Assembly: GCA_963814415.1 (NCBI GenBank)
Contig: CAWFCN010000002.1
Coordinates: 487,111-551,110, forward strand
DNA: 64,000 nt
Source: an uncultured Actinomycetes bacterium
GTDB taxonomy: Bacteria > Actinomycetota > Thermoleophilia > RBG-16-64-13
Direction: 5' to 3'
Shown: positions 20,418 through 58,363 of the stretch, one piece after another
How positions within the stretch are numbered: the first letter of the stretch is position 1
How the letters are laid out: each line of letters starts with the position of its first letter
Made by a program: the position numbers and the translations under genes
Notes under the pieces: model-generated
The model's database searches: none
The model's input: only the letters and a program-made list of their open reading frames with translations
Told to the model about the DNA's origin: nothing

Positions 20418-21306
20418 CTAGGAACGCAGTGCGCGGGCTATGCGACGGAGTTCGCCGTCGTCCTTGAAGGGCACTTCGACGACGCCGCCGGCCCCTCTGC
20501 TCTTCACACTGGCCTCCAGGCCGAAGAGGCCCACGAAAGCCTCTTTCACTTCGTCGACTAAATCATTGTCGAGTGAGAAGGCAGGCTTCTTCGCAACCAC
20601 CTTGGACACGTCGGCCGCGCGTCGCACCTCATCCTCGACCTGCCGCACAGACATCCCTTTTTCGATGGCTTTGCGGGCCAACTGAAGCTGCTTTCCCTTT
20701 TCGGATAGACCGAGAAGTGCACGGCCGTGGCCTTCACTCAAGGAACCGCTGGCGAGAGACTCCTGCACAGCCGCGGGCAGATCCAGCAAGCGCACCTTGT
20801 TGGCGATGGCGGAGCGGCTCTTACCTACCCTCGACGCCAAGTTCTCCTGAGTGACCCCCAGGTCCTCAAGAAGTACTTTGAGGGCATATGCCTCGTCTAC
20901 GGGGTTCAGCTGCTGACGCACGACATTCTCGACGAGGGCGAGTTCTAGGCTCTCTACGTCAGACGCGGTCCTTACAATAGCCGGTATCACGGTGAACCCG
21001 GCCTTCTGAGCGGCTCTCCATCGACGCTCGCCGGCTATCAACTCGTAACCGCCATCGACGGCGCGCACTATCACAGGTTGGACGATTCCAACCGCGGCGA
21101 TCGATGTAGCCAACTCATCCAGGGGGGCTGCATCTATGGCGCGGCGTGGCTGGCGGGGATTCCGGCGAATCTGATTCACCGGAAGGTCCAAGACGCCTAC
21201 CGAGCTGGCTGTCTCATGCTCCGCCGTGGGCTCCGCGCCTTCGAATGAGGCTAGTTCACCATCTTCGCCGAGCAGAGCGGCGAGGCCCCGGCCCAACCCC
21301 GTCTTC

Positions 21307-21314
<8 letters not shown>
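20418..21314 (-). CDS. parB: Chromosome partitioning protein ParB (Spo0J)
   Basis: MAKKTGLGRGLAALL start, ParB box (GERRWRAA) and an HTH. Intact. Confidence 0.85.
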
Positions 21315-22805
<1,491 letters not shown>

Positions 22806-34178: not shown

Positions 34179-34194
34179 GTTGGGGAACGGAGCC

Positions 34195-37588: not shown

Positions 37589-38932
37589 ATGTCAGCGCCC
37601 CGGGTGCTGCTGATTCCGACGCATCACACCGGCCTGGCCGACGCCATCGCGGCGGTCGTGTCGGAGATCGCGGCCTCCAAGGGGCGCGAGGTTCGCTATC
37701 ACCATATCGGACCCCAAGCCCCGATCGCGGCCTGGGACAGGTGGGGGGGTGCGGTCTTTGTCGACCCCGCGCTCACGAGTGAAGAGACCCTGCTCAGCCT
37801 GTATGAGGTCGCGGCACGGCATGCCGATATATCGTTGCTCTCATCGGACACCGGACTCCTGGACCGCACCGCGGGTGTCGATTGGGTGCCGGCCGACCTA
37901 GCCGGCCTGCTGGACTGCCCGGTGGTGGTGGTCATGGATTGCAGGGGTTGGGGTACCGGGATTAAGCTGCAGACCACGGGCATCAAGACTCACGCCCGAA
38001 CGGCTGGCCTGCTGGGCGCGATCCTCTCCGGCGTGTCGGACCAGGAGCACTACTCACTGCTCAAGAAGACGCTCGCGGAGGACGGCATCCGCGTCTTCGG
38101 CTGTCTGTACGAGGGCCAAGGTCTCGGGTGGGACTCGACTGCACCATCGGCCTGGGGTCTCCCCATACCCGCCGACATACAGCAAGCGGTGGCCCAACAA
38201 GTAGACGTCGCCGGGCTCTTGGCGTTGGCCGGTCAGCGCGGGTTCCTGGCTGCCCATAACCGTCTGTCGGATCACGGTACTGACGGCCCGGTCGTGCTTG
38301 TCGCAAGCGGCAACGGCTTCACGCAGTGGAGCCGAGACTCGGTAGAGATCCTTCGGTCTGCCGGGGCACAGGTCCGGCGGTTGGATCTTCTGGAGGACTC
38401 CGTCTTGCCGACCGAGGCCTCCGGTCTGATCCTGGCGGGCACTCTCTGGCCCGATACCATCCAGGACATAGCCATGAACACGACGCTCCTAGAAGACGTA
38501 GCCACCAAGGTGAAAGGCGGGCTTCCCACGCTGGCTCTCGGCGGAGGGATGCTTCTACTTCTAAGCAGACTGCAGGACACCTTTGGTCGGACCTCGGAGT
38601 TGGCGGGCGTGATCCCGGCGCAAGGCGAGATACTTTGGGATCTGGAATCCCCGGCATACGTCGAGGTGAACACCCTCCAAGACAACGTGTTGCTGAAGAA
38701 GGGCATGAAGTTGACGGGATGGACCTTCAGTGAGGTCGAACTCACCGGAGAAGGACAGTCCTGGGAGCCTCCGCTATCGCTTCGCGGGGCGGGGACGAAC
38801 ACAGAACGGCGCGAGACCTTCGGTCATGACGCCCTCCTGTGTTCTCCAGCGATGGTGCACCTGGGGGCAGAGCGCGGCATGGCGAGCCGTTATGTAGAGC
38901 ACTGCAAGGTCTATGCGGCGGGGGTCGCGTAA
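37589..38932 (+). CDS. CbiA/CobB/CobQ-like (cobyrinic acid a,c-diamide synthase family) protein with degenerate P-loop and no GATase cysteine; likely a pseudoenzyme
   Basis: Overall CbiA architecture (N-terminal ParA/MinD-like fold plus C-terminal GATase1-like). THHTGLADA stands where GxxGxGKT is expected, and LALGGGMLLL where the catalytic ECGGLMYL is expected. Confidence 0.45.
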   Translation: MSAPRVLLIPTHHTGLADAIAAVVSEIAASKGREVRYHHIGPQAPIAAWDRWGGAVFVDPALTSEETLLSLYEVAARHADISLLSSDTGLLDRTAGVDWVPADLAGLLDCPVVVVMDCRGWGTGIKLQTTGIKTHARTAGLLGAILSGVSDQEHYSLLKKTLAEDGIRVFGCLYEGQGLGWDSTAPSAWGLPIPADIQQAVAQQVDVAGLLALAGQRGFLAAHNRLSDHGTDGPVVLVASGNGFTQWSRDSVEILRSAGAQVRRLDLLEDSVLPTEASGLILAGTLWPDTIQDIAMNTTLLEDVATKVKGGLPTLALGGGMLLLLSRLQDTFGRTSELAGVIPAQGEILWDLESPAYVEVNTLQDNVLLKKGMKLTGWTFSEVELTGEGQSWEPPLSLRGAGTNTERRETFGHDALLCSPAMVHLGAERGMASRYVEHCKVYAAGVA

Positions 38933-39989: not shown

Positions 39990-40066
<77 letters not shown>

Positions 40067-40103
40067 CTATTCTCACGTCGCCACGCTCCTGCTCGATCCG
40101 CTT

Positions 40104-40179
40104 GGGGGATTAGCTCAGTTGGGAGAGCGCCGCCTTTGCACGGCGGAGGTCGCCGGTTCGACCCCGGTATCCTCCACCT
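40104..40179 (+). tRNA. tRNA-Ala (anticodon TGC) with the G3:U70 identity pair
   Basis: GGGGGATTAGCTCAGTTGGGAGAGCGCCGCCTTTGCACGGCGGAGGTCGCCGGTTCGACCCCGGTATCCTCCACC. Confidence 0.9.
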
Positions 40180-40340: not shown

Positions 40341-41318
40341 ATGAAAGCACTAAAGACAGCCAGAAAAGCACACGTGACCGAGCGTCAGAAGGCCTGGGCC
40401 AGATTGGCGCTTCTGACGGTCGTGGGGATGGTGTGCCCTCCGCTGGCAGCGGCCAAGTCGATTGCTGTGTGGGGCGTATACCTCGTCGTAGTAGTCCTCT
40501 ACTCACTCTGGACCGTGCGCATCACCCGAACGGGGAAGCGCGATAGGCATCTGGGCTACGTGCTGTGCGTCACCGATGCCGTCGTCTTGGTCCCTATCCT
40601 GGTCTGGAGCATAGGCATTGCGATGCGGGTGGTGCTGGTCGTGCTCTGGGCGGCCGGTGCCGCGACCACCTGGAGAACAGCTGTGGCCGAAGAGCAAGCC
40701 TCGCGAAAGAAGAGGCGCTCGCGAGAGCTCGCGAACTCAGCACGGCACAGGCTGCACCACGAACACGCAAAAGCGGGCGGGCAGGATGCCCCATTGGAGC
40801 GCTCGATCCGCGCGCGGCTGCGGGCCCTGCAGTTGGAGAAGACCAGGTTCGCGATCGTGCTCCTCAGAGTCGCCGGGCACGACGAGCTGGTGGCCAGCCG
40901 CGGACTGGATGCCAGCAAGGAGCTGCTACGGGAGATCGGACGCAGAGGGCTGCGTTTGCTAGGTCCCGACGCTCAACTCTTCGTGCTGCCCGGGGGCCGG
41001 ATGGCCTTTGTCTTCGCGACTGATTCTGCATCGGAGCGCGCTCGTCCGGCGGATCACCGCGATGCGGCCCGGATAGACCCCTACGATGTCGAAAGTCTGG
41101 CGATGGCTCTGGCTCGCAAGGCCTGCGACGATGCCGTAAGAGGACGCCCGGTGGAGTGCGTCGTGGGGTGGGCGTCCGCCCCGGCCGACGGGACCACCGC
41201 CGACGACCTCATGTACGCCGCCGAGAGCGGGGCTCTGAGCAGCGCCGCGTTCCGAAGGGTCGGCGGAGCCCGGTTGACCGTCGCGGAACCAGAGAGGAAG
41301 CGCGCGGTCGCGGGATAG
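40341..41318 (+). CDS. Membrane-anchored protein with a degenerate GGDEF-like domain (GGRMAF in place of GGDEF)
   Basis: 3 N-terminal TMs and a coiled-coil region. RFAIVLLRVAGHDELVASRGLDASKELLREIGRRGLRLLGPDAQLFVLPGGRMAFVF aligns to the GGDEF fold, but the catalytic DE is lost. Confidence 0.5.
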   Translation: MKALKTARKAHVTERQKAWARLALLTVVGMVCPPLAAAKSIAVWGVYLVVVVLYSLWTVRITRTGKRDRHLGYVLCVTDAVVLVPILVWSIGIAMRVVLVVLWAAGAATTWRTAVAEEQASRKKRRSRELANSARHRLHHEHAKAGGQDAPLERSIRARLRALQLEKTRFAIVLLRVAGHDELVASRGLDASKELLREIGRRGLRLLGPDAQLFVLPGGRMAFVFATDSASERARPADHRDAARIDPYDVESLAMALARKACDDAVRGRPVECVVGWASAPADGTTADDLMYAAESGALSSAAFRRVGGARLTVAEPERKRAVAG

Positions 41319-43963: not shown

Positions 43964-44045
43964 GCAGAGTCCGGTTGGAAGCGGCACAGGCTTTCCGCTA
44001 GAATAGCCGCATTCCCTTCTATGCCACAGCCCGATGGGAGGCACG

Positions 44046-44537
44046 ATGGCCCGCATAATCGACGATCGCGGACGCTTGTTCGGCAAGGTCAATATCGTGG
44101 ACATCCTGGTGCTGGTCGTCGTGATCGCCGTGGCTGTCTTCGTGGGTCTCCGCGCGACTGATGACAGAGTGGATACCGTGCCGGTTAGTATCAGCTTTCT
44201 GGTACAGCCTACGGAATCTCAAGCCCTCGCCGGGTTCACGACTCTTGGCCCCTTGAAAGACATAGCCGGCCGGACCCTTGGCACCATCGAGAAGGCCGAC
44301 ATCGTACAACCGGACCCGGTGCATTTTGGCAACACCGACAAGGACTACGAGCTGTACATACCGTCCGCACCTGAAGTACTACTGCTGGTGTCGGCCGAAG
44401 GGACCGTGTCCGGTACCGATGTGCACGTCGGCTCTGTCGTATTGCGTGTAGGTGCCGAGATGAGGCTCATCGGACCTGGGTGGGAAGGCATCGCCCAGAT
44501 AGTCAAAGTGGACCGAGGCGCGGCGCCCACCAAGTAG
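44046..44537 (+). CDS. DUF4330-like small membrane-anchored protein (family number recalled from memory)
   Basis: MARIIDDRGRLFGKVNIVDILVLVVVIAV N-terminus. First gene of the glycan cluster. Confidence 0.45.
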   Translation: MARIIDDRGRLFGKVNIVDILVLVVVIAVAVFVGLRATDDRVDTVPVSISFLVQPTESQALAGFTTLGPLKDIAGRTLGTIEKADIVQPDPVHFGNTDKDYELYIPSAPEVLLLVSAEGTVSGTDVHVGSVVLRVGAEMRLIGPGWEGIAQIVKVDRGAAPTK

Positions 44538-44546
44538 CGCGCGACA

Positions 44547-46490
44547 ATGCACCTCTTCACGAACTCGTTGTTATTCCGAGCCGGCGGGGGCCTGCTCACC
44601 TGGTCTACCAACGCAGCTCGTCATTCGCTTACCGCGCGCTCTCTACGCGGAGCAACGCGGACGTTAGGCAGGGTGTTCGCTTCCAGCCTGGTGTTTGGTA
44701 CCAGCCGCCTCTCGTCCTTACCGCTGGCGGCCGACGGTCTGCCACTCAGCGTTCGGGTCATCTCGCGTCCATACGTACGGGTGCGCGCAGCACTGGCGGA
44801 TGGCGCTATCGATCCTTTCAGACGCCGGCTGGGGATCTGGAGCGCGCATTCGACCTTCAGCAAAGGCGCATGGATTCGCCTAGTCGGCGCGGCTCTGATT
44901 GGAACGGGCTGTGGCGGCGTCATACTCGCGGGCCTCGGAAGGGCGACCACAGCACTTGTCCCAGTTGTCCTGATACTGGCGGGACTGCTGGCCCTGGTGT
45001 GGGGACCGCGCCTAGCGCTGTCGTTTAGAGATAGTCTGGTCTTCCGCAGATTCTTCGCTTCGCCAGGGGGTGGACCCCTCTCGGTCGAGCAGACCGTTCT
45101 CGCCCATCATGGCCGTTTGGTTATGGGCACGGGGATCGCGGTCTGTGCCGCCTTGGGACTGCTGGCCAGCCTGGTAGGCAAGTCAGGTCCGGTTTGGCTC
45201 GTGGTCCTTGTCCTGGCGATCAGCGCGGCCGTGCTCCTGCTGAAACGTCCGGAGGCCGTGCTACTCGCGGTAGCCGCCTTCCCCTGGCTGGACTGGCTGG
45301 CGCGAAGGAAGCTAGGCGGACTAGGAGCCGGCTGGGACGAGGGTCTGCTTCTGCTGTCCCTTCTCTTGGTGGTCTGGGGGGCCCTGGTTACAGGCAGGCT
45401 TCGCCTGCGCACCGTGCCCATAACCCTCCCGGCGATGGTCGCTCTGGCGGCCGCAGTCGGGTCCATCGTTGTGAACGGGGTACCGCAAGACGTGGGCGTG
45501 TTTGCTCTGCGAGTCGTTTGCGAGCCTGTGCTCTTCTTCTTTGCGGGCTTCCTGCTTTTCACGACCGCGCGCTGGTTGCGGTGGATCGTGGCTGTGTTCC
45601 AGGTCTCGACGGTGGGTCTGGCGGCACATGGACTCTACCAGTATGCGGCGCGCATCCAAACGCCAACGCGCTGGGTAGATGCCACCGAGACTGACATCAT
45701 CACCCGGGCCTTCTCCGTGATCGGCAATCCAAACGGGCTGGGAGCAGTGCTGGTCATCGGCTGCCTGGTGGCCCTCGCTCTGCTGCTTTCGCCAAGCGTG
45801 AGCAAGGCGTCGCGCTTCGTGCTGGGTATCGCGTTGGTGATCCAGTTGGGCGGAGTGGCGGTGACCTTCAGTCGAGGGAGCTGGATAGGGCTGGTCTGTG
45901 GCATAGTCGCGTTGTTGGTGCTGGCCTACAGGAAGTACTTGGTACCGGCGGGGCTGGTGGCTCTGGTGGGAGTCTTCGCCGCACCCGGCGTGTTCGTGAA
46001 CAGATTCCTGCTGATATTCAGCGGAACATACCTGGGCAAATCAGCGGTCGATGGCCGTACGTACAGGTGGACCGCCGCCCTTGATCAGATAGCCGCACAC
46101 CCTTGGTTCGGCATGGGCCTAGGCACTTTCGGAGGGTCGGCGGCGGAGAGGTTCCAGTACTGGTCCATCTGGGTGGACAACTACTATCTGCAGATGGGCG
46201 CCGAAGGCGGACTCCTGTTGCTGGCATCGTTCGCGTGGCTGCTGACCCGCGTGGGCAAGGGTCTCGTAAAGGGATTCCGAGTGGCCGGAGACCCGTTCGC
46301 ACGGGCATTGGCCGCCGGCGTGTTCGGGGCGTTCGTGGCGACCATCGTGATCAACGTGTTCGTGAGTGTCTTCGAGACACTGTCGGTGGGGGCAGCCTTC
46401 TGGTTGTTGTCGGGTGTGGCTACCTCGGCCGCCTTTGCGTCCGGTGCGGACCGGGGTCACGCAGAGGTCTCTCCGGCGGACTCGCGATGA
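44547..46490 (+). CDS. O-antigen ligase/polymerase (Wzy_C) family polytopic membrane protein
   Basis: More than 10 TMs. TFSRGSWIGLVCGIVALLVLAY and a downstream periplasmic loop are typical of Wzy_C. N-terminal ~190 aa extension of unclear validity. Confidence 0.6.
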   Translation: MHLFTNSLLFRAGGGLLTWSTNAARHSLTARSLRGATRTLGRVFASSLVFGTSRLSSLPLAADGLPLSVRVISRPYVRVRAALADGAIDPFRRRLGIWSAHSTFSKGAWIRLVGAALIGTGCGGVILAGLGRATTALVPVVLILAGLLALVWGPRLALSFRDSLVFRRFFASPGGGPLSVEQTVLAHHGRLVMGTGIAVCAALGLLASLVGKSGPVWLVVLVLAISAAVLLLKRPEAVLLAVAAFPWLDWLARRKLGGLGAGWDEGLLLLSLLLVVWGALVTGRLRLRTVPITLPAMVALAAAVGSIVVNGVPQDVGVFALRVVCEPVLFFFAGFLLFTTARWLRWIVAVFQVSTVGLAAHGLYQYAARIQTPTRWVDATETDIITRAFSVIGNPNGLGAVLVIGCLVALALLLSPSVSKASRFVLGIALVIQLGGVAVTFSRGSWIGLVCGIVALLVLAYRKYLVPAGLVALVGVFAAPGVFVNRFLLIFSGTYLGKSAVDGRTYRWTAALDQIAAHPWFGMGLGTFGGSAAERFQYWSIWVDNYYLQMGAEGGLLLLASFAWLLTRVGKGLVKGFRVAGDPFARALAAGVFGAFVATIVINVFVSVFETLSVGAAFWLLSGVATSAAFASGADRGHAEVSPADSR

Positions 46491-47365
46491 GAAAGATAAG
46501 AGTCACTGCAGTGGAGATAGCCGCGCTCACCAGCGACGAATTCCGTACGGCGGTAGTCGAGTCGCTTCGCGGGTCGCGGTCGATGGCAGTGGCCAAGGTA
46601 AACGCCGAGTTCTTGCTTAGGGCCTTGGATGACCAAGAGTTCCAACAGTTTCTGAATAGCACCGGCGTCAACATCGCGGACGGCGTGGGAGTATTGTGGG
46701 CCGCCCGGTTCTTGACTCTCAAGAGCACGAAGATGCCAGGGCTGCGGCACCTGCAGGTGCTATGGCAGGCCGCATACTCACTCGTCAGCCTCGCCATGTT
46801 CCCCGCTTTCTGCCGCACGCCCATACCTGAGCGCATCCCGGGCGTGGACGCGCTCTACGTGATGCTGCAAGCGGCTCAAGAGGCCGACGTGTCCGTGTAC
46901 TTCTTGGGCGCGGGGCAGCAGGTCAACGCCAAGGCCAGGATGGAGATTCAGGCGCGGATGCCAAGGCTGAAGATCGCTGGAGGACGCGATGGCTATTCCG
47001 AAGACTGCGACGCCGTCCTGCGAGAGATAGACGACTCTGGGGCAGCGTTGCTGGTCGTGGCGCTGGGAAGTCCCAAGCAGGAGTACTGGATGCGCGACCA
47101 CCTGAGCAAACTGCGTGGCGTGAAGGTAGCGGTTGGAGAGGGCGGATCGCTGGATTTCATAGCGGGTGACTTCCGTCGGGCGCCCGACTGGCTTCAGGCC
47201 CTTGGCCTCGAGTGGTTCTGGCGGTTGTTCATGAACCGCAACAGGACTGGGTCGATCTCCAGGGCCCGCAGGATTTGGAACGCGGTGCCTGTCTTCGTGT
47301 GCCGCGTGATTCAATGGAGGCTGAAGCATGGAAGCCCCAGGTCTGAGGCACGGGAGTCCATATGA
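46487..47365 (+). CDS. WecB/TagA/CpsF family glycosyltransferase (GT26)
   Basis: VNIADGVGVLWAARFL...YFLGAGQQV...LLVVALGSPKQEYW. ATGA overlap with the upstream gene. Confidence 0.8.
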   Translation: MRKIRVTAVEIAALTSDEFRTAVVESLRGSRSMAVAKVNAEFLLRALDDQEFQQFLNSTGVNIADGVGVLWAARFLTLKSTKMPGLRHLQVLWQAAYSLVSLAMFPAFCRTPIPERIPGVDALYVMLQAAQEADVSVYFLGAGQQVNAKARMEIQARMPRLKIAGGRDGYSEDCDAVLREIDDSGAALLVVALGSPKQEYWMRDHLSKLRGVKVAVGEGGSLDFIAGDFRRAPDWLQALGLEWFWRLFMNRNRTGSISRARRIWNAVPVFVCRVIQWRLKHGSPRSEARESI

Positions 47366-48516
47366 AGAAGATCGCTGTGCTCTACAGCGGGGGCCGTCAT
47401 TGGGGCGGCATCGAGACGTATCTTGCGAACCTCTTCAAACTGTACGACAGGAAGCAGATGCAGCTGGTCCTCATCAGCCTGGGGGAGTGGGATCTGACCA
47501 GGGCTTTCCGTCAAGCAGGTCTGTCACCTCTCTTAAGAGTGTTGCCGGGCAGGAGGATAAGGCCCAAGACGATCCTTGATCTGTCGCGACTCATCCGGGC
47601 CGAGCACCTCGGGCTGGTCGTCTCGCATGGGACTGTAGCGAACGCCTACGCGAGGCTAGCCGCCCTGGTGGCGAGAGCACCGAGTCTAGTGGTCGTACAC
47701 AGCGATATGGCGCTCGACTATCCGTCGAGCACGCGCTGGGCCTACAAGTTCTCGGACCGATGCCTACGTCGCTTGACCACCAGATACGTGGCCGTCTCCT
47801 GGAACTTGAAGTCGAAGATGGTCAAGTCGGGAATCAATGGCGACGACGTTACAGTCATATACAACGGGGTGAACACCGCGGGCAGAATGCCAAGACCGAT
47901 CCGAGTCTCATCCGGCGGACCCGCCGCGGGCGAAACAGGCGAATCGTGGGCCGGCGGCGAGACTGGAGAGTCAGAGGAGGCGATCCTACTCGCCTCCGTG
48001 GGGCGACTGCACCCGGTGAAGAACTTCGATGGCCTGATCAGGGCCATGTCCCTTCTGCCGGCCCGGGTGCGGTTGACGGTATGGGGCGACGGAGGCGAGA
48101 GGGAGAAGCTCCGGGCCATTGTGGATTCCCTGGCGCTAGGCGATAGGGTCACACTTCCTGGCGAGTCGCAGAACATGGGGGACGCGCTGGAAGGTGTGGA
48201 CATCTACGTTCAACCATCGAAGAGCGAAGGATTCGGTTTCGCAGTCGCTGAGGCCATGCTGCACGGCAAGCCTGTAGTGGTCACGCCTTGCGGAGGGCTG
48301 CCGGAGCAAGTGGATAACGGAGTGACAGGCTTGGTGGCCGACGATTACAGCCCCGAGGCCCTGGCCAGGGCGATAGTGCCCCTCATCAACAATCACTCTC
48401 TGGCGGCGAGACTGGGCGAGGCGGGTAGGCGCGCAGCGCAAGAGAAGTGTTCGATGCAGAAGTGGCTCGCAGATACCACGAAAGTCTTATGCGATACTGC
48501 ACGAGGAACCACATGA
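47362..48516 (+). CDS. Glycosyltransferase family 4 (GT-B, group 1)
   Basis: C-terminal GT1 domain (LASVGRLHPVKNFDGLIRA...QPSKSEGFGFAVAEAMLHGKPVV). Contains an unusual GETGESWAGGETGES insert. ATGA coupling. Confidence 0.8.
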   Translation: MKKIAVLYSGGRHWGGIETYLANLFKLYDRKQMQLVLISLGEWDLTRAFRQAGLSPLLRVLPGRRIRPKTILDLSRLIRAEHLGLVVSHGTVANAYARLAALVARAPSLVVVHSDMALDYPSSTRWAYKFSDRCLRRLTTRYVAVSWNLKSKMVKSGINGDDVTVIYNGVNTAGRMPRPIRVSSGGPAAGETGESWAGGETGESEEAILLASVGRLHPVKNFDGLIRAMSLLPARVRLTVWGDGGEREKLRAIVDSLALGDRVTLPGESQNMGDALEGVDIYVQPSKSEGFGFAVAEAMLHGKPVVVTPCGGLPEQVDNGVTGLVADDYSPEALARAIVPLINNHSLAARLGEAGRRAAQEKCSMQKWLADTTKVLCDTARGTT

Positions 48517-49724
48517 GCAAGATGATCCAACAAAGAGAGATCGTTTGTCTGTCATCGCTTGACTGGGACGTTTGTTGGACCAGCAAGCAACAGATCATGT
48601 ACAGGCTCTCTGAATCCAATCGGGTGCTCTATATCGAGGAACCGGTGACCATGCTGGCGCCTTTGGTCGTGCCCGCTCACTGGAGGCGATGGAAAGCGCT
48701 CATTCCGCGGATTCGTCGGCAGGGCGCGCAACTCTGGACCCTCACCCTCCCTCCGCTCCTTCCGTTCGGCAACAAGAGTCGGAGTATCAACAGCCTCAAC
48801 CAGGCCGTCGTGGCGAGCTACGTGCGCTGGGCCATGAAGAAGCTGTCGTTCTCGAGTGACTACATACTGTGGACATATCTTCCCCAGACCCTGGCTGTGC
48901 TCCACCGTCTGCGCCGCGCGAGTGGAGGCAGTGCGCCCGCACTCGCCATATACCATTGCGTGGATGAACATTCGGCCTTCCCGGGTCACTTCATCTCACC
49001 TGAGCTGGTGAAGGCCTACGACGACGCACTGACCAAAGAAGTCGACCTGGTAATCACCACTTCTGAGAGTCTCCGCGAATCGCGCGAGGCTCTCAACCCG
49101 CGCACCTACACGGTGCTCAACGCGGCCGATGTGGAGCTCTTCAACCAGGCGCTCACCCCAGACCTCAGTGAGCCTGCCGACCTGGTAGGTATCCCGTCGC
49201 CTCGACTGGGCGTGGTGGGCGTCCATGACCATCGACTTGACGTAGATGCGCTGGAAGCACTGGAACAGGCCGACTCTTCGTGGCAGGTCTTGCTCATCGG
49301 GCCCCTGCGGGTCAGTCATGCGGACGACATCAGGCTGCGACGCCTTTCGAGCGTTCATGTGCTTGGCGCGAAACCACGGCAAGAACTCCCGTCGTACCTC
49401 AAGGGGTTGAGCGCCGCTCTTATCCCGTATAAGCCTGGTGAACTGACTCGCAACATCTTCCCCCTGAAGCTGTTTGAATACTTGGCGGCCGGACTGCCCG
49501 TGATCGCAGGTGGGCTGCCGGAACTGAGGCGCTACCCCGGTATGGTGTGGCTGGCCGAGAGCGCGAAGGACTACCCTGGACTTGTCCGTGCTGCTATCGT
49601 CGAGGACACTGCCGCCAAACGCGCCGAGAGAGTCTCTCTGGCGGCGGAAAACTCCTGGGATCGCCGGGTAGCAGATATCTCGGCTCTGGTAGAGGCAGCG
49701 CTAGCGAGGAATGCTCAGCGCTAG
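48513..49724 (+). CDS. Glycosyltransferase family 4-like
   Basis: EX7E-like motif NIFPLKLFEYLAAGLPVIAG. ATG 48513 (MSKMIQQ) overlaps the upstream stop (ATGA). Confidence 0.7.
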   Translation: MSKMIQQREIVCLSSLDWDVCWTSKQQIMYRLSESNRVLYIEEPVTMLAPLVVPAHWRRWKALIPRIRRQGAQLWTLTLPPLLPFGNKSRSINSLNQAVVASYVRWAMKKLSFSSDYILWTYLPQTLAVLHRLRRASGGSAPALAIYHCVDEHSAFPGHFISPELVKAYDDALTKEVDLVITTSESLRESREALNPRTYTVLNAADVELFNQALTPDLSEPADLVGIPSPRLGVVGVHDHRLDVDALEALEQADSSWQVLLIGPLRVSHADDIRLRRLSSVHVLGAKPRQELPSYLKGLSAALIPYKPGELTRNIFPLKLFEYLAAGLPVIAGGLPELRRYPGMVWLAESAKDYPGLVRAAIVEDTAAKRAERVSLAAENSWDRRVADISALVEAALARNAQR

Positions 49725-49919: not shown

Positions 49920-52900
49920 TTGAAGCTTCAAAACCCTCTCGTCAAACACGGACGCCCTGGATCGGACTGGCATCACTCGCGCCGCCTGCGTCGAGCAACT
50001 CTCTCGGTCCTTACTGTGGCTATTGTTGTCGCATTCACTACGGTGTTTGCCCAGCCGGTCTCGGCAGCCACGGGTGACTTTGTTATCCAGGGCCGCGGGT
50101 ACGGCCACGGGGTAGGCATGAGTCAATGGGGAGCATGGGAAGCAGCAAGAGAAGGCAAGACGTACGCCGAGATCCTTGCCTTCTACTACCCTGGCTCGAT
50201 GCCGGACACGGCCCCGGGCGGAACCACGATCAAAGTGCGCATCTCCAAGGATCCGGCCACGACCACCTACGACGACCACTACTACCGTGTCTATCTGAAA
50301 CCGGTTGCGACCACAGCGGTCCTCCGGTTACAGAACTTGGGGTCGCCCGACGTGGACGTGCCCCTAACGGTGGGACAAGTCGTCGAGACTCTGTATGCCC
50401 CGGTGTCCGGAGTGGGACATGTCTGGGTGGCCGGCCGCGGCGCGTATGACCATGTCTACGTGATCCCGGATTTCGACACAGGGAGAGTGGCGGTCTCCAT
50501 GCAGGTGAGCAGTGTCGCCCCCGCCACCACATACCGAGAGTACTGGGGCAGCATGAATGTCGAGCCCATGGGTGAGGGGGAAGTCTACCTGAACAACTAC
50601 GTGCTCTTGGACAAGTACGTTCGGGGCGTAGCTGAGATCAAACCCGAATGGGCGAACAGCAGCTACACCAATCTCTATGCCATCGAGGCAGTGAAGGCCC
50701 AGGCCGTGGCCGCTCGCACCTACGCCTATGCCGAATACCTCAATGCTGGTTACGTCAACGACGACACCAGGGACATCTACTACAGGGGCTATGCCTTCGA
50801 GGTGGCCAACCCCGGGGCGGCTCAGGCAGCCACAGACACCGCCGGCGAGATACTCTCCTACGGCGGCACCCTCTACAAGACATACTTCTCTGCCCACTCC
50901 GGCGGCTACACCACCGCAAGTGCCTGGAACGACTCGCCGCCGTTCTACCTGGAGTCGAACCCTGACCCGTACAGCCGTGCCGCTCCGCCCACTGGTCTGG
51001 TGACCGGAATAGCTCCGGGCTATTCCTGGAGCGTAACCTACACTCCCGTCGATCTGAGTACCAAGCTGATAGGTAGCGGGTACATCGACAACGTGGGCAC
51101 GGTGACCCAGTTGGAGATCATCGCGCGAGACACCACGGACCCGGAGAGCCACGTCACCGCCGTACGGGTCACCGGTACCCTGGGCATCGACACTATCTCC
51201 GGGCGTAACTTCAAAGCCGCGTTGGGCCTCCGCTCCACCCTCTTCAATGTGGTGCTCTATGGAAGCCCGATTCGCACCGATTCTACCAACTCCAACATCG
51301 CATATCTTGGCGCCTGGTCGACGGCCTACAATGTCTATGCATTCGGGGGCAGCTACGCGCTCGCCGACGGCCCTGCCAAGGCGTCCGTGAGCTTCGATGG
51401 CACATACCTGGCGCTTGTGGCCAGGACGGCCCCCAACAACGGGAAGGCCTTGGTGTCCTTGGATGGTGGGCCGGGAGTCCCGGTGGACTTCTACAGCCCG
51501 ACGGTCAAGCACGGGCAGCAGGTATACAACACCGGTAGTCTCACCAGCGGGGCACACACCGTCACTATCGAGTGGACCGGCACCAAGAACTTCCTCGCGA
51601 CGGGTACCATCATAGGCCTCGACGCCGTGGATGTGGTCGGGACGATCACCCCAAGCCCGGACATCCCTCCGCGATACGGGGAAGCCAACACCAATCTGGC
51701 CTATGGGGGACCGTGGAGTGTCACCAGCAGCTCGCTGGCGACGGATGGCTCGCTGAAGCTACTCAATTCACCCGGATCTGTGACGGCTACGTTCACCGGC
51801 ACCTACTTGGCCTGGGTGACCAAGACAGCGCCCACCTGTGGCAAGGCCAAGGTGACTTTGGACGGCGGAGGTTCGACTATGGTCGACCTCTACAGTGCCG
51901 CCGAGGCGAACAGACAGATCGTCTACAACACAGGCTTCCTCGCCCCCGGTGCGCATACAGTGACCATAGAGTGGACCGGCACCAAGAACGGAGCAGCAAG
52001 CAACTATCAGATAGGCGCCGACGCCTTCGACGTCATCGGTACGCTGACGCTCGCGCCTCCTGCTCCCGCATATCCGACTCGCTACCAACAAAACGACGCG
52101 CTCATCACCTACCTCGGCACGTGGGCCGGTAGCAGCGTGGCTTCAGCTTCGGGTGGCTCCATCATCTCCTCGAGCGCCACCGACGGCCAAGTCACCATCT
52201 GTTTCCACGGCACAGGACTAGCCTTGCTGGCCAATACAGGCCCCAATCTAGGCATCGCCGCAGTGACCCTGGGCGGGGTGCCCGAACCGCCGGTGGACTT
52301 CTATAGCGTAGGCACCCTGTACCAACAGGAGGTCTACGATACCGGACCATTGCCCGAGGGCGACTATACCCTGGTAATCAAGCCTGATGGAACCAAGAAC
52401 GCAGCTTCCAGCGGCTATGCCATCGACATAGACGCCTTGGACATCTTCGGCGAGCTGACGGCCGCTCCGGCCCCGACGCGCTACCAGCAGGCGGAGTCGA
52501 ACCTCACGTACGTGGGGTCCTGGAGGACCGGCTACTCAGCGGGCGCCTCCCTCGGCAGCTACATCTACCTGAACTCAGGTGGGTCGGTGACAGTGAGTTT
52601 CGACGGCACCTATCTCGCGTGGGTAGCGAAGAAGAGCAACCAGTATGGGGTCGCGTGGGTCCGTCTGGATGGGGGAACACCACAATCGGTCGATCTTTAC
52701 AGTGCGACCACCATGTACAAGCAGACGGTCTGGAACACCGGAGTCTTGGCCCCTGGGACGCACACTCTATGCATCTCATGGTCCGGGTTCAAAAACCCGA
52801 AGTCGTACGCAACCAACGTCGGTTTCGATGCCTTTGATATCTTGGGGACCCTCAACCCGGCTCCCGCCCCGCCAGCTATGCCGTCGCGCTATCAGCAGAA

Positions 52901-53270
52901 CAACTCGAAACTCGTCTACAGCGGCGCCTGGGCTGGCGCCTACTCCTTCTGGGCGAGTGGGGGTAGTCTCCGGTTCCTCAACGCCGCCGGCTCGGTGACT
53001 GCGAACTTCAACGGGACATATCTCTCCTGGGTTGCCAGAAAGCACCCTGTCTACGGAATAGCCACCGTAACCCTTGACGGCGGAGCGCCAATCTCTGTCG
53101 ACCTATACAGATCGGCCTCGCTCGACCAGGTGAACGTATACGACACAGGCATCCTGGCGCCGGGGAATCACACAGTCGTCATCACATGGACAGGCACAAA
53201 GAACGCCTCAGCTACCAACACCTACATAAGTAGCGACGCCTTTGACGTGATCGGAACCCTTGTGCCGTAG
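49920..53270 (+). CDS. Secreted protein: SpoIID/LytB domain followed by 5 tandem copies of an uncharacterised ~130-aa module
   Basis: TTG start with GGAGGAAG RBS and an RR-containing signal peptide. SpoIID motifs (GYGHGVGMSQWGA; EAVKAQAVAARTYA; YFSAHSGGYT). The repeats share Y.G.W...ASGGS...F.GTYL.WVA...YG.A.V.LDGG.P..VDLYS...Q.VYNTG.L.PG.HT..I.WTGTKN...DA.DV.GTL. Confidence 0.75.
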   Translation: MKLQNPLVKHGRPGSDWHHSRRLRRATLSVLTVAIVVAFTTVFAQPVSAATGDFVIQGRGYGHGVGMSQWGAWEAAREGKTYAEILAFYYPGSMPDTAPGGTTIKVRISKDPATTTYDDHYYRVYLKPVATTAVLRLQNLGSPDVDVPLTVGQVVETLYAPVSGVGHVWVAGRGAYDHVYVIPDFDTGRVAVSMQVSSVAPATTYREYWGSMNVEPMGEGEVYLNNYVLLDKYVRGVAEIKPEWANSSYTNLYAIEAVKAQAVAARTYAYAEYLNAGYVNDDTRDIYYRGYAFEVANPGAAQAATDTAGEILSYGGTLYKTYFSAHSGGYTTASAWNDSPPFYLESNPDPYSRAAPPTGLVTGIAPGYSWSVTYTPVDLSTKLIGSGYIDNVGTVTQLEIIARDTTDPESHVTAVRVTGTLGIDTISGRNFKAALGLRSTLFNVVLYGSPIRTDSTNSNIAYLGAWSTAYNVYAFGGSYALADGPAKASVSFDGTYLALVARTAPNNGKALVSLDGGPGVPVDFYSPTVKHGQQVYNTGSLTSGAHTVTIEWTGTKNFLATGTIIGLDAVDVVGTITPSPDIPPRYGEANTNLAYGGPWSVTSSSLATDGSLKLLNSPGSVTATFTGTYLAWVTKTAPTCGKAKVTLDGGGSTMVDLYSAAEANRQIVYNTGFLAPGAHTVTIEWTGTKNGAASNYQIGADAFDVIGTLTLAPPAPAYPTRYQQNDALITYLGTWAGSSVASASGGSIISSSATDGQVTICFHGTGLALLANTGPNLGIAAVTLGGVPEPPVDFYSVGTLYQQEVYDTGPLPEGDYTLVIKPDGTKNAASSGYAIDIDALDIFGELTAAPAPTRYQQAESNLTYVGSWRTGYSAGASLGSYIYLNSGGSVTVSFDGTYLAWVAKKSNQYGVAWVRLDGGTPQSVDLYSATTMYKQTVWNTGVLAPGTHTLCISWSGFKNPKSYATNVGFDAFDILGTLNPAPAPPAMPSRYQQNNSKLVYSGAWAGAYSFWASGGSLRFLNAAGSVTANFNGTYLSWVARKHPVYGIATVTLDGGAPISVDLYRSASLDQVNVYDTGILAPGNHTVVITWTGTKNASATNTYISSDAFDVIGTLVP
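51290..53267 (+). repeat. 5 x ~396-nt in-frame tandem repeats encoding the ~130-aa module
   Basis: The protein-level repeats start at NIAYLGAWSTAY, RYGEANTNLAYGGPW, RYQQNDALITYLGTW, RYQQAESNLTYVGSW and RYQQNNSKLVYSGAW. Confidence 0.7.
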
Positions 53271-53451
53271 AGCGGCTTTTCAGGCGGAATAGTCTGAGCG
53301 CTGGGCCCACCCTGTGGTGGGCCCAGCGCTCATTTCGTTCTATGTGCAGAGCCGGCGGCTCAGGTGCGCAGACGGTTTTGCCGATAGGATAACGGGGCTA
53401 TTTGCAGCCGCACATGAGATGATGTCCGGGCCGAGCATAGAGGAGGCTACC

Positions 53452-55638
53452 GTGTCAGCTATCGGCCGCCAGGCCAAGACGACCCCATCGATCCGCGGGG
53501 GTCGTACCCTCGCAGTCCTCGTCACATTGTTGGTGTTGGGTGTGTGCTCCGTGGCCGGACTCTGGGCTGCTCCGGCCCAAGCCGCCACCACCGCTCTCAG
53601 CAGCGAAGAACTAGAGTTCCTCTCTCTGATGAACGACTACCGTGTCGCCAATGGCGTCGCACCCTTGCTTATCTCGGACAAACTCATGCTATCCGCGGAC
53701 CGGCACAGCTCCGACATGGCCAAGTACTGGTTCTTCGACCACAAGACCAAGAAGTCAGACTGGTTCACCGTCGGTTCCTACCCGTGGGATCGTATGAAGA
53801 AGTGCGGCTACAGCTACTACACGTACATGGGCGAGAACATTGCGGCGGGCCAGATTACCGCGCAGTGGGTGTTCGACGACTTCAAGTATTCCACCATGGG
53901 CCACAACGAGGCCATGCTGAACCCCAGCTATAAGGTGGTGGGCGTATCTCAGGTGTTCCGTAGCGGCTCGCAGTACGAGTACTACTGGACCATCGATTTC
54001 GGTGGCTACATAGATCCGACGGCCCACGACCCCGCGATGTTTCAGCAGAACGATTCCAGACTGACTCGTCTAGGGAGCTGGGCGGGCGTCTACAGGAGCT
54101 CAGCCTCGTACGGCAACTTTGTCACCGCCAAGTCAAGGGGGGACGCTATCCTGGCCGGGTTCACAGGCGCCACCATCGAGGTCGTTGCCGAGATGGGCCC
54201 GCAATACGGAAGAGCCAAAATAAGCGTGGACGGGAACGCCCCGGAGGTAGTGAACCTCTATTCCCCCACTACCTTGCCCCAGCAGACGGTCTGGCGGAGT
54301 GGCTCTCCACTGGACGAGACTGTGCCGCACACTTTGCTCATCGAATGGGATTATGAGAACAACTCCGCTGGTCAACTGATAAGCGTGGATGCGCTGCGAG
54401 TGTTGAAGGCTGACGGAGACCCGGGCGACTTGACCCAAGCCCCCTTGCCCAAGAGGCATGAGCAGGACAATCCTGCCATCCGCTATGTCGGCCCGTGGGC
54501 TACGAGCTGGAGTGGGTCGGCCTCTAACGGAAGCTTCGCATACGCGGGCGCGCCGGGTGCAGCGGTAAGCGTGAAGTTCACAGGCACCTATCTATCCTGG
54601 ATCGCGAAGAAGAACCCATACTATGGGAAAGCCCGCGTCAGCCTCGACGGGAGTGCTCCGGTCACCGTCGACCTCTATAGCCCATACAGCACGTTCAAGC
54701 AGAGCGTCTACGGCACTGGGTTCCTGGAAGACACGGAACATACTCTCAGCATCTACTGGGACGACAAAGCCCGCAAGATCAACGTGGACGCCTTCGACGT
54801 TTTCGGTGCTGACTTCGCCGAGGTCGATTTGACTGCGGCTCTCGATGATCCGGTGCCCATCAATTGGCTGTACGAGAACACAGACTCGAGGATAGGCTAT
54901 CTCGGGCCATGGACGACCGGGTTCACCAGCTTAGCCTCTGGCGGTAGCCACAAATACTCCTGCATCAAAGGGGCCGTGGCTGTGGTCAAGTTCACCGGCA
55001 CTTCGATCGAGCTCCTGGGCAGGACGGGGCCAGCCTACAGCACGGCGCTGATCAGTTTGGACGGAGCAGGCCCCGAGTTGGTCGACCTCCACGGCGACAC
55101 GAACGAGTTCAAGTCCATCTACAGCAATCCCAGCCCCCTTGAGTACAAGGAGCACACGCTTACCATCCAAGCAACCGGCTACGACGCAACGTCAGGCGGG
55201 TACGCACTCAGCATCGACGCGCTCAAGATAACTGGGACAATGACCGAGGCCGCCAAGACTACTCGTGTCCAGCAGACCAACCCGATGTTCGCGTACGAGG
55301 GCCGCTGGGCCACCCGCTACATCTCAGCGGCCTCGTATGGCAGCTTCAAGTACGCGAATTCCCCTGGGGCAGCGGTCACAGTCACGTTCGACGGCACGTT
55401 CTTTGCCTGGGTGGCCAAGGTTGGCCCCACATACGGCCGGGCCTTGGTGAGCGTCGACGACGGTGAGCCCACGACTGTGAGTCTCTACAGCTCTAGGAAC
55501 GCCTACAAGAGACAGGTCTTCGCGACGGGCTTGCTTGACCCAGGCACCCACCACGTCACTATCAGGTGGTCGGAGGACAACGCCGCCGGAAGGTACATCA
55601 GCGTGGACGCGGCCGACATAGTGATCGTCACGCGGTAG
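53452..55638 (+). CDS. Secreted protein: CAP/SCP (YkwD-like) domain followed by 4 tandem copies of the same ~130-aa module
   Basis: GTG 53452 with a GAGGAGG RBS and a signal peptide (RGGRTLAVLVTLLVLGVCSVAGLWAAPAQA). CAP motifs (NDYRVANGV...HSSDMAKYWFFDHK...GENIAAGQ...MGHNEAMLNPSYKVVGVS). The repeats are homologous to those of the upstream gene. Confidence 0.7.
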   Translation: MSAIGRQAKTTPSIRGGRTLAVLVTLLVLGVCSVAGLWAAPAQAATTALSSEELEFLSLMNDYRVANGVAPLLISDKLMLSADRHSSDMAKYWFFDHKTKKSDWFTVGSYPWDRMKKCGYSYYTYMGENIAAGQITAQWVFDDFKYSTMGHNEAMLNPSYKVVGVSQVFRSGSQYEYYWTIDFGGYIDPTAHDPAMFQQNDSRLTRLGSWAGVYRSSASYGNFVTAKSRGDAILAGFTGATIEVVAEMGPQYGRAKISVDGNAPEVVNLYSPTTLPQQTVWRSGSPLDETVPHTLLIEWDYENNSAGQLISVDALRVLKADGDPGDLTQAPLPKRHEQDNPAIRYVGPWATSWSGSASNGSFAYAGAPGAAVSVKFTGTYLSWIAKKNPYYGKARVSLDGSAPVTVDLYSPYSTFKQSVYGTGFLEDTEHTLSIYWDDKARKINVDAFDVFGADFAEVDLTAALDDPVPINWLYENTDSRIGYLGPWTTGFTSLASGGSHKYSCIKGAVAVVKFTGTSIELLGRTGPAYSTALISLDGAGPELVDLHGDTNEFKSIYSNPSPLEYKEHTLTIQATGYDATSGGYALSIDALKITGTMTEAAKTTRVQQTNPMFAYEGRWATRYISAASYGSFKYANSPGAAVTVTFDGTFFAWVAKVGPTYGRALVSVDDGEPTTVSLYSSRNAYKRQVFATGLLDPGTHHVTIRWSEDNAAGRYISVDAADIVIVTR
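54040..55635 (+). repeat. 4 x ~399-nt in-frame tandem repeats encoding the ~130-aa module
   Basis: The protein-level repeats start at FQQNDSRLTRLGSWAGVY, HEQDNPAIRYVGPW, LYENTDSRIGYLGPW and VQQTNPMFAYEGRW. Confidence 0.7.
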
Positions 55639-56521: not shown

Positions 56522-57862
56522 CTACAGCTCTCCCGCCAGGTCATGAAAGACCAACCCGGTCGGCAGTTTGGGATAGAAGAACGTGGTCTTCTGCGGCATG
56601 CGCTCGCCACCAAAGGCGACTTCGCATACCTGATCGAGCCCGGTGGGGTTCATAAAGAAGCCCACCTGATATTCACCGGCCTCAAGCCGCGCGAAGGCGT
56701 CGGCTGCGTCCTTGAAGTAGGTCACATGCTTCTCGGCAGCCATGTCCGAGGCGGAGACGCCCAGGGTCTTCTCCAGCACAAGCGTCTGGAGGATGGCCAC
56801 GTCCAATTCCTGGTAGGCGCCACTGTGGTCGGTGGACACATGCGCTTTGGCTCTATCTGCGAGACAGAAACCGTAGGGAGCGTCCAGCACAGTACCCCAG
56901 ACACCGAATGCGCCTTGCGCGTGCCTCTTGAGGTAGGCCGCTATGGAGTCCCGCGCGGCGCCGGCACCAGCGCGCGCCGTACCAGGGGCGCCGGCGCTTA
57001 GCCTCTCCACCTCAAAGGTAGCCGCCAGTGAACCCGGCAGGCCGGCCACGGCGCCTTCGGGGAGGCCGTGTAGCAGGCGGTGTGTGGGGTAGATGGCCAG
57101 GGCGGGATCGCACTTGTTGACCAGGTAGACAAGGCAGTAGTCAAAGGCAGGAGAGGCTTCGTGGTGCTCGCCGGCCACCTTGCTGCGTGCCTGTCGATAG
57201 CGGAGCGCGGTCTCGTATCTATGGTGCCCGTCCGCGATCAGGAAGCGTTCCGTCGCAAGGACCCGCGTGACCAGGGCGCACAGGTCAGGATCGGCCGTGG
57301 GCCACAGCCGCGTCATATTGCCGGCCTCATCCGATGTGGTGGCGGACGGCTCATCCGGACCAAGCGACGCTTTCCACGCCGCGGTTATCTCGTCCCCCGG
57401 AAGGTCGTACAGCATGAATACCGGGCTGAGACTCATGGCGGTCGCGTCCATCAACTGGAAGCGGTCCTCTTTGGGACCGGTCAGCGTATGCTCGTGCGGA
57501 TAGACCACACCCTCCCCGAACTCAGTCAGTCTCATAGCCGCGAGTACGCCGTGGCGGCGCCCTGCCTGTCCATCGGGTCCCGTGAAGCTCTCCTCGACAA
57601 AGGTGACGGAGGGGTCTGAGTCTCGCACCAAGACGCCCGTGCGCTTCCAGTCGGCCAGCAGCGCCGCCGCCCTGGTGTATTGGTTGCCTGAACCGGTGTC
57701 CCCAGGGTCGGTGACGCCCAAGTCGACGCGGACCACGTTATGCGGGCTGCGGGCATAGAGGGCGGACTGCAGGTCAGGGCTCACGATGTCGTAGGGAGGC
57801 GCCACCAAGCTGGACAGGTCGCCAGCAGTCGGCGAATAGCGCCAAGCGCGGAATGGGACCAC
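56522..57862 (-). CDS. DUF1015 family protein
   Basis: N-terminus MVPFRAWRYSP...VAPPYDIVS is typical of DUF1015. Confidence 0.7.
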   Translation of the reverse strand: MVPFRAWRYSPTAGDLSSLVAPPYDIVSPDLQSALYARSPHNVVRVDLGVTDPGDTGSGNQYTRAAALLADWKRTGVLVRDSDPSVTFVEESFTGPDGQAGRRHGVLAAMRLTEFGEGVVYPHEHTLTGPKEDRFQLMDATAMSLSPVFMLYDLPGDEITAAWKASLGPDEPSATTSDEAGNMTRLWPTADPDLCALVTRVLATERFLIADGHHRYETALRYRQARSKVAGEHHEASPAFDYCLVYLVNKCDPALAIYPTHRLLHGLPEGAVAGLPGSLAATFEVERLSAGAPGTARAGAGAARDSIAAYLKRHAQGAFGVWGTVLDAPYGFCLADRAKAHVSTDHSGAYQELDVAILQTLVLEKTLGVSASDMAAEKHVTYFKDAADAFARLEAGEYQVGFFMNPTGLDQVCEVAFGGERMPQKTTFFYPKLPTGLVFHDLAGEL

Positions 57863-58081
57863 AGTGTCCAGATAGGTCTCCTCGGATGCGGGGTTGCCGA
57901 CCGGCAGTGCCTGAATGATATCACCGAGGGTAAGGCCCTCTCCACGCAGGCCTGGAGACGTGACGGCGGAATAGGTTGCGCGGGCGTTCGCCTGCCGCTA
58001 GATTGGAAAGAGAATGGAATCGGCCGGACCGCCTCGCCTCAGGATCGGGCGGCTTGGAGCCTCACAAGGGAGGGCACACCA

Positions 58082-58363
58082 ATGGGGTTGAAGGACACGA
58101 TATCCGCCGGACTCCGTAGATTCGGCGAAGAGGCCGAGAAGGCGCTCGACAAGGGCAAGACGAAGGTCGAGGAACTCCAGACCGAGCTGCAGATGGATGG
58201 CCTCGCGAAGAAACTGGGCTATCTGACCTATGACCAGCACCGCGGCCGCAAGGTCGACGAGGCCACCCGAGTCAAACTGCTGATGGACCTTGCTCGTCTT
58301 GAGGACGTCCTGGCGAAAGCCAAGGCCGAGGCCGCGGCCAGAGCGGTATCCAACAAGAGCTAA
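58082..58363 (+). CDS. Small coiled-coil hypothetical protein (93 aa)
   Basis: ATG 58082 with an AGGGAGGG RBS; the track ORF 57740.. is a longer upstream extension. Heptad-like EEAEKALDKGKTKVEELQTELQ. Confidence 0.45.
   Translation: MGLKDTISAGLRRFGEEAEKALDKGKTKVEELQTELQMDGLAKKLGYLTYDQHRGRKVDEATRVKLLMDLARLEDVLAKAKAEAAARAVSNKS

Follow-up and report, generated by a model that had tools for sequence, protein, structure and literature searches.

Tandem jelly-roll modules on secreted peptidoglycan enzymes of uncultured Actinomycetota as candidate envelope glycan-binding arrays

Introduction

Known wall-anchor systems pair a protein repeat with an envelope polymer: CWB2 repeats with PSII, SLH repeats with pyruvylated secondary cell wall polymer (SCWP), and choline-binding repeats with teichoic acid. 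CWB2 typically occurs in three copies in the Cwp proteins that carry it. Other β-jelly-roll domains are classed as carbohydrate-binding modules (CBMs). MiXBM, which binds xanthan, has been assigned to CBM84 in a review (PMC10881899), and the loops of the CBM35 domain of the peptidoglycan O-acetylesterase Ape1 contribute to the active site of that enzyme (bioRxiv 10.1101/2021.09.23.461501). Here, we describe a module of ~130 amino acids (aa) that is arrayed in tandem in the products of two adjacent genes, A and B, within 64,000 nucleotides (nt) of the genome of an uncultured actinobacterium (contig CAWFCN010000002.1, positions 487,111 to 551,110, forward strand; this whole stretch is referred to as “the window”). 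The module has the fold of a binding domain, recurs on thousands of proteins, and probably serves, on balance, to hold exported enzymes at the cell envelope.

Results

Genes A and B are co-oriented open reading frames (ORFs) of 1,116 and 728 aa (Table 1), and their products are identical to database proteins P0202 and P0169, both on one contig; the identity of P0169 settles the start of gene B at position 53452. In each product, a head domain is joined through a Pro/Ala-rich linker to an array of modules. The head of A matched the SpoIID/LytB model TIGR02669 at 142.4 bits (cutoff, 83.3) and Pfam SpoIID at 40 bits (cutoff, 23); that of B matched Pfam CAP (PF00188) at 49.1 bits (cutoff, 21.1), with the YkwD subfamily model TIGR02909 remaining below threshold (65.8 versus 171 bits). 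Both N termini look like Sec signal peptides, with a basic n-region, a hydrophobic core of 15 residues (mean Kyte-Doolittle value, 2.55 for A and 2.83 for B), and an AxA site. A profile built from all nine module copies of the window detected exactly five in A and four in B and no further copy in the 64 kb. Pairwise identity among the copies is 28 to 55%, and copies A5 and B3, which stand at 28% in the identity matrix, still matched each other by BLASTP at an E value of 1e-16. A preliminary description of this DNA, made from the letters alone, had proposed this architecture, namely two secreted proteins with signal peptides, SpoIID/LytB-like and CAP/YkwD-like heads, and five and four copies of a shared β-rich module; all of this held, and its residue pattern agrees with the consensus derived here. 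The module start that it gave, 51290, is where the conserved core begins, the module itself starting ~30 nt earlier.

The fold was modeled with confidence. AlphaFold2 returned an all-β structure for copy A5 (predicted local distance difference test score [pLDDT], 97.3; predicted template modeling score [pTM], 0.90), a jelly roll of the CBM35/CBM6 kind that superposes on the N-domain of carbohydrate esterase family 2 (CE2). Its closest structural neighbors were the C-terminal domain of BT_2959 (3nqh; score, 16.9), the CE2 esterase N-domain (2waa; 15.7), and the xanthan-binding MiXBM (7ehg; 13.7, at 23% identity), followed by several CBM35s (about 12), CBM6/36 domains (9 to 10), and Ape1 (8gld; 8.9). 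The repeat profile matched 3nqh in the PDB at an E value of 1.7e-7; searches of Pfam and the PDB gave remote matches to CE2_N and 3nqh and no dedicated family. As modeled, then, the module is a CBM-type β-jelly-roll, with a distant relationship to Pfam CE2_N and the 3nqh C-terminal domain. Having been called uncharacterized, it does lack a dedicated model, a name, and an experiment, but its fold class is known. A di-repeat model that includes copy A4 (pLDDT, 94.7; pTM, 0.83) suggests that the geometry between repeats is fairly fixed despite Pro/Ala-rich linkers; a Foldseek search with this model found no solved tandem arrangement like it (TMq, ≤0.38). With a larger alignment, the profile also matched 6xi1 (“flagellin hook IN motif”) at an E value of 9.9e-9, which we rejected as domain homology because the match covers only a 35-residue hairpin. 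The repeats of 6xi1 share a hairpin motif (Y....v....L..g.HT.TI..TG.ND/NAA) with module positions 80 to 114, a likeness that is probably convergent or limited to a shared hairpin.

Membership in a named family was assessed with Pfam. Summed over the whole protein, CE2_N (PF17996) passed its gathering score of 27.9 bits in A (58.0) and B (49.4), and no single copy reached it: in order from A1 to B4, the copies scored 14.1, 16.4, none, 18.6, 20.0, 12.1, 24.1, none, and 19.8 bits, with only profile positions ~10 to 87 of 108 aligned. Public precomputed annotation labels homologues as PF17996, as “faint” matches. The CE2 architecture, in which the N-terminal jelly roll is followed by an SGNH/GDSL esterase, was not found, as neither A nor B has a Pfam SGNH/GDSL match. 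Neither CBM_35 nor CBM_6 matched the window repeats at E values of ≤1, and CBM_35 was matched in only 2 of 52 representative homologues; the CBM84 structure 7ehg was not retrieved by the repeat profile. At the same threshold, the two proteins and their single repeats showed no CWB2, SLH, LysM, SH3b, choline-binding, or PG_binding_1 match in the repeat region, which bears out the earlier view that this is none of the standard wall-binding repeats, and no other anchor domain was recognizable in either protein. Big_3_5 (≤26.5 versus 35.5 bits) was rejected as the identity of the repeat for falling below its cutoff, as were weak matches to Pyocin_S, Shr-like_HID, P_ac_wall_RPT, PCNA_C, and Trp_ring, all below cutoff or partial. 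Literature searches on PF17996/CE2_N and on SpoIID with carbohydrate-binding modules and Actinobacteria found no paper on the module. The most fitting description is that of a sequence family, new and very abundant, inside a known fold superfamily; its use in tandem arrays, attached to peptidoglycan enzymes in uncultured Actinomycetota, is a new architectural context.

The extent of the family emerged when 1.84 billion cluster representatives (50% identity) were searched exhaustively with HMMER, which was needed because a single-repeat profile run against a word-indexed protein database had returned only 18 short fragments. Among the representatives, 17,050 proteins matched at E values of ≤1e-3, 8,822 at ≤1e-10, and 1,727 at ≤1e-30. 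Arrays range from 2 to 14 copies across the family and from 3 to 14 in the best 150 members, whose proteins reach 5,149 aa. Nearly all sources are metagenomes or metagenome-assembled genomes (MAGs) of Actinomycetota, with a few labeled Eubacteriales and one homologue named “C40 family peptidase [Coriobacteriales bacterium].” Paralogues are many, with several loci per MAG and five in MAG CAWAOX01.

Conservation was counted over 700 full-length copies and is concentrated in a small set of residues. Near-invariant positions are W20 (99%), F47 (97%), G49 (98%), G63 (99%), D70 (96%), H101 (98%), and D123 (99%); S29, D78, and Y80 are each kept in 87%, and E, Q, or D at position 8 totals 98%. This signature is present at each array position in orthologues, copy A3 being the exception in the window, with D70 and H101 lost. 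Between species, repeats are positionally orthologous (56 to 65% identity on the diagonal versus 39 to 54% off it), so the arrays are old and each copy has been individually maintained; on the same ground, we rejected the idea that the repeats were duplicated recently or evolve in concert.

A Pfam scan of the 52 representative homologues matched CE2_N at E values of ≤1e-5 in 51 and found, as other domains, TIG in 13 proteins, NlpC/P60 in 6, CAP in 5, Amidase_3, YkuD (with PG_binding_1), and Cohesin in 4 each, PD40 in 3, and GH3, CE4, M23, SpoIID, S8, and GDSL in 1 each. The best 120 homologues of B comprise ~47 with CAP, 29 with NlpC/P60, 9 with SpoIID, 5 with Amidase_3, 3 with S8, and 1 each with M23 and CE4; a third homologue search added many M23, C39-like, and M28 partners and one SLH, with Amidase_3 again. 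The layout of an enzymatic or CAP head plus a repeat array, proposed from the window, is thus real and recurrent. The module may be C-terminal or internal, as in CWB2-TIG-NlpC/P60 proteins ending in four or five copies and in an NlpC/P60-module-Amidase_3 order, and in Actinomycetota MAGs it is found side by side with CWB2, an established anchor to the wall. Seven loci (L005, L007, L009, L011, L012, L019, and L021) carry another recurrent pair of adjacent genes, which sets an M23 protein with two modules beside a gene with four or five and echoes the SpoIID/CAP pair of the window; at L005 (9392-14702), the only one of the seven scanned with Pfam, the partner is a CWB2-TIG-NlpC/P60 protein with five copies.

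Some module proteins are giants of 2,000 to 5,100 aa (L047 12403-18591; P0019, of 5,149 aa; P0024; P0150), with up to 14 copies of the module together with TIG. They also hold repeated ~90-aa Ig-like units of the pattern DTTAPVT...Y.S.D..GN.E. An N-terminal unit at L014 matches CHB_HEX_C_1.

Genes A and B are separated by a perfect hairpin that begins 25 nt past the stop of gene A and overlaps a longer alternative ORF start at 53314. It is likely an intrinsic terminator, so A and B are probably separate transcripts. A scan for sigma-70-type promoters around the two genes found no site. Compared with the full-length SpoIID model, the head of A seems to be circularly permuted: its GHGVGMSQWGA motif maps to residues 48 to 93 of the product of A but belongs near the C terminus of TIGR02870 (positions 288 to 333 of 338), and positions 3 to 129 of TIGR02669, its N-terminal half, align with residues 225 to 355, leaving ~130 residues between the two matches without assignment.

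The module genes lie directly downstream of a glycan-synthesis cluster, as the preliminary description had noted. Toward the 5′ side of A, the gene order is Ddl, amidohydrolase, an AIRC-like gene, DUF4330, Wzy_C-like, WecG/TagA (GT26), and two GT4-type transferases; on the other side, B is followed by YmdB and DUF1015 genes. Far from being absent in related genomes, the association recurs in eight of them (loci L001-L004 and L046-L049), where the order is (Epimerase_2)-DUF4330-Wzy_C-WecG-GT4-(MurJ)-SpoIID_module-CAP_module-...-YmdB. Wzy_C and a UDP-N-acetylglucosamine (UDP-GlcNAc) 2-epimerase occur in some of these loci, and L046 and L049 include a MurJ-type flippase; the SpoIID gene is missing in L046, and a 2,062-aa TIG and module protein is inserted in L047, so that one of the giant-protein genes sits within a conserved SpoIID/CAP locus. 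The orthologues vary in size with repeat number, from 757 to 1,131 aa for SpoIID proteins and from 458 to 748 aa for CAP proteins. All of these genomes belong to one lineage (YmdB, 80 to 86% identical).

The window covers the chromosomal replication origin region, with a cumulative GC skew minimum near 28 to 30 kb, and the module block lies in this core region, ~20 kb from dnaA/oriC. Loci L046-L049 carry a minus-strand gene pair between the CAP-module gene and ymdB, with Golvesin_C (PF25275) in all four, a faint NHL match on the neighboring gene in three and none in L049, and small SHOCT-domain genes alongside. A tblastn search with the window's own neighbors found no counterparts of this pair, no search of the window having been aimed at Golvesin_C or NHL. 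Four further ORFs of the window have coding-like GC content at third codon positions and no Pfam match at E values of ≤1e-4 or 1e-3: 679-2598 (639 aa), 37589-38932 (447 aa), 40341-41318 (325 aa), and 57740-58363 (207 aa).

Table 1. Coordinates of features in the window, module genes first
Feature	Coordinates	Strand	Basis
Gene A, secreted SpoIID/LytB-domain protein, five C-terminal module copies	49920..53270	+	ORF, P0202 identity, TIGR02669 and Pfam SpoIID
Gene A signal peptide (predicted), residues 1-49, RRLRR n-region, VSA/A site	49920..50066	+	Sequence reading and hydrophobicity window
Gene A SpoIID/LytB head	50067..51257	+	TIGR02870 and TIGR02669 matches
Module copy A1	51258..51653	+	Repeat profile
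Module copy A2	51657..52052	+	Repeat profile
Module copy A3, sole window copy without Asp70 (Gly) and His101 (Tyr)	52065..52463	+	Repeat profile, orthologue signature check
Module copy A4, part of modeled di-repeat	52464..52859	+	Repeat profile
Module copy A5, modeled with AlphaFold2	52872..53267	+	Repeat profile
Terminator-like hairpin between A and B, 17-bp stem, 13 G-C pairs, T-rich tail	53295..53332	+	
Gene B, secreted CAP/YkwD-like protein, four C-terminal module copies	53452..55638	+	ORF, P0169 identity, Pfam CAP
Gene B signal peptide (predicted), residues 1-44, AQA/A site	53452..53583	+	Sequence reading and hydrophobicity window
Gene B CAP domain, residues 57-183	53620..54000	+	Pfam
Module copy B1	54043..54420	+	Repeat profile
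Module copy B2, top single-copy CE2_N score	54439..54819	+	Repeat profile
Module copy B3	54853..55248	+	Repeat profile
Module copy B4	55249..55635	+	Repeat profile
Upstream glycan-synthesis cluster	44034..49724	+	Pfam
DUF4330	44034-44537	+	
Wzy_C-like	44547-46490	+	
WecG/TagA GT26	46619-47365	+	
GT4	47362-48516	+	
GT4-like	48447-49724	+	
parB	20418-21335	-	
dnaA	27080-28576		
gyrA, after dnaA, dnaN, recF, and gyrB	34180-36789		
tRNA-Ile(GAT) and tRNA-Ala(TGC)	39990-40178		

Discussion

A binding-module fold, a Trp/His/Asp signature in each copy, multivalency, partner enzymes that act on the cell's own peptidoglycan, and many paralogues together point to an envelope glycan-binding array. We consider it somewhat probable that the arrays are multivalent glycan-binding devices that target exported enzymes to the cell envelope by avidity; both the binding of glycan and the choice of the cell's own envelope as target are what we infer from these features. 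Each unit would be a CBM-type jelly roll from a distant, lineage-expanded branch of the CE2-N/CBM35/CBM84 superfamily. Fairly rigid arrays of 2 to 14 such units would confer avidity-based affinity on secreted peptidoglycan-remodeling enzymes and CAP proteins, and the ligand would be a cell-envelope glycan, either peptidoglycan strands or a wall-linked polysaccharide. In a monoderm actinobacterium, with its single membrane, such binding would retain exported enzymes at the wall and set their position on it. The near-invariant set of Trp20, Asp70, Asp78, Tyr80, His101, and Asp123 may form the binding site, a Ca2+ site, or both; E8 of the first strand and D123 of the last could form the kind of structural Ca2+ site that is typical of CBM6/35 folds.

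Several observations weigh against an envelope-binding array. All matched family members are unnamed metagenome or MAG proteins, and the closest structural relatives, the CE2 N-domain and BT_2959, come without a demonstrated ligand of their own. CWB2 is also present on 21 of the 29 NlpC/P60 homologues, and most of these 21 have TIG too; retention may thus be possible without the module, and its standing as a sole anchor is weakened. Finally, because the module can lie between two catalytic domains or in giant TIG/Ig-rich, adhesin-like proteins (up to 5,149 aa), a structural role fits these cases equally well.

Nested within envelope binding is a more specific and decidedly tentative proposal: that the module is the signature noncovalent wall anchor of a largely uncultured actinobacterial lineage and recognizes one dedicated secondary wall polymer, containing N-acetylmannosamine (ManNAc), made by the adjacent WecG/TagA-GT4-Wzy_C locus with its MurJ and UDP-GlcNAc 2-epimerase (Epimerase_2). 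Epimerase_2 and WecG/TagA together represent the chemistry of the ManNAc linkage unit in pathways to teichoic acid and SCWP, which fits such a polymer, and the order of the block is kept in all eight loci despite gene gain and loss inside it. Among 38 other (non-SpoIID) module loci, 5 have a WecG-like gene within 10 kb, compared with roughly 1 expected by a rough estimate, yet the remaining 33 have none nearby. Moreover, since the syntenic genomes come from one lineage and the block occupies a core region near oriC, inheritance rather than function may account for the gene order. Among those ORFs of the window that were scanned, neither an LCP ligase nor a priming phosphotransferase turned up, and the co-occurring CWB2 domains could be what binds the polymer instead. 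We therefore regard the dedicated-polymer proposal, which the preliminary description had put forward as noncovalent anchoring to a dedicated surface polymer, as possible, but doubtful.

The main rival to envelope binding holds that the array is a rigid, nonbinding spacer or stalk that projects or spaces the heads through a thick wall, or a surface lattice, with anchoring left to CWB2, SLH, or PG_binding_1. The pTM of the di-repeat model, which suggests fixed interdomain geometry, would suit a stalk, as would the module's sharing of proteins with those three anchors, its internal placement between catalytic domains, and its mixing with TIG and Ig-type domains in giant proteins. Three features make this unlikely: one Trp, one His, and three Asp positions are near-invariant (~98% of the 700 copies), beyond the usual needs of fold maintenance, the two proteins of the window have no other recognizable anchor, and the module has the class of fold seen in binding modules.

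Structural neighbors that are CBMs of carbohydrate-active enzymes raise the prospect that the array instead binds foreign material, either environmental polysaccharides or other cells, to capture nutrients or to adhere, in the manner of the CBM35 and CBM84 modules found on glycoside hydrolases and lyases. A few homologues do carry GH3, CE4, GDSL, CBM_35, cohesin, or F5/8-type-C domains, but the partners are mainly enzymes of the cell's own peptidoglycan (NlpC/P60, Amidase_3, M23, YkuD, and SpoIID) rather than polysaccharide depolymerases, and we hold capture of foreign material to be quite improbable. That the jelly roll packs on the catalytic head and forms part of the substrate cleft, as in its structural relatives the CE2 esterases and Ape1, is very improbable given arrays of 2 to 14 copies on either side of at least 10 unrelated head types, copy numbers that differ between SpoIID and CAP orthologues, and Pro/Ala-rich linkers that part head from array.

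If the arrays bind the envelope, they would define the way in which peptidoglycan hydrolases are kept in place in a large, uncultured branch of Actinomycetota, and they would constitute a new carbohydrate-binding family, possibly with a new ligand; the profile and conserved residues would help to annotate thousands of unnamed proteins. Should the more specific wall-anchor proposal be true, the module would be a further anchor system, of separate evolutionary origin, beside the pairs of SLH and pyruvylated SCWP, CWB2 and PSII, and choline-binding repeats and teichoic acid, and would merit a new CBM family. If it is a spacer only, annotating so common a repeat remains useful, though the biology would be ordinary. 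Per-domain Pfam thresholds miss the module, and a dedicated model would improve the annotation of soil and sediment metagenomes.

Compared with known systems, the module departs from each of its structural relatives. The C-terminal β-sandwich of BT_2959 (3nqh), annotated as a “glycosyl hydrolase” of Bacteroides thetaiotaomicron, a Gram-negative bacterium of the gut, is a single copy on a glycoside-hydrolase domain; it is 17% identical to the module and has Tyr in place of His101. The CE2 jelly roll (PF17996; 2waa, 2wao, and 4xvh) occurs as one N-terminal copy, whereas the module forms tandem arrays with no SGNH esterase partner, and the CE2_N model aligns in part, below cutoff for every single repeat. 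With CBM35, CBM6, CBM36, and CBM84 (MiXBM, 7ehg), the module shares the fold but not membership at the sequence level, and its partners are peptidoglycan enzymes rather than polysaccharide depolymerases. The CBM35 of Ape1 (8gld), a more distant structural match, is a single copy packed on the catalytic domain, where it shapes the active-site cleft. Like CWB2 of the Clostridioides difficile Cwp proteins and like SLH, the module is a repeated, noncatalytic unit borne by many secreted paralogues whose heads are diverse and include, notably, wall hydrolases, and some of its genes are clustered beside a wall-polymer synthesis locus. Unlike these systems, it has an unrelated fold, its wall binding is putative, it co-occurs with CWB2 itself, and its copy number varies between 2 and 14, compared with the usual three of CWB2 in Cwp proteins. 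By analogy, the module is most like CBMs or the CWB2/SLH wall-binding repeats in its apparent mode of action.

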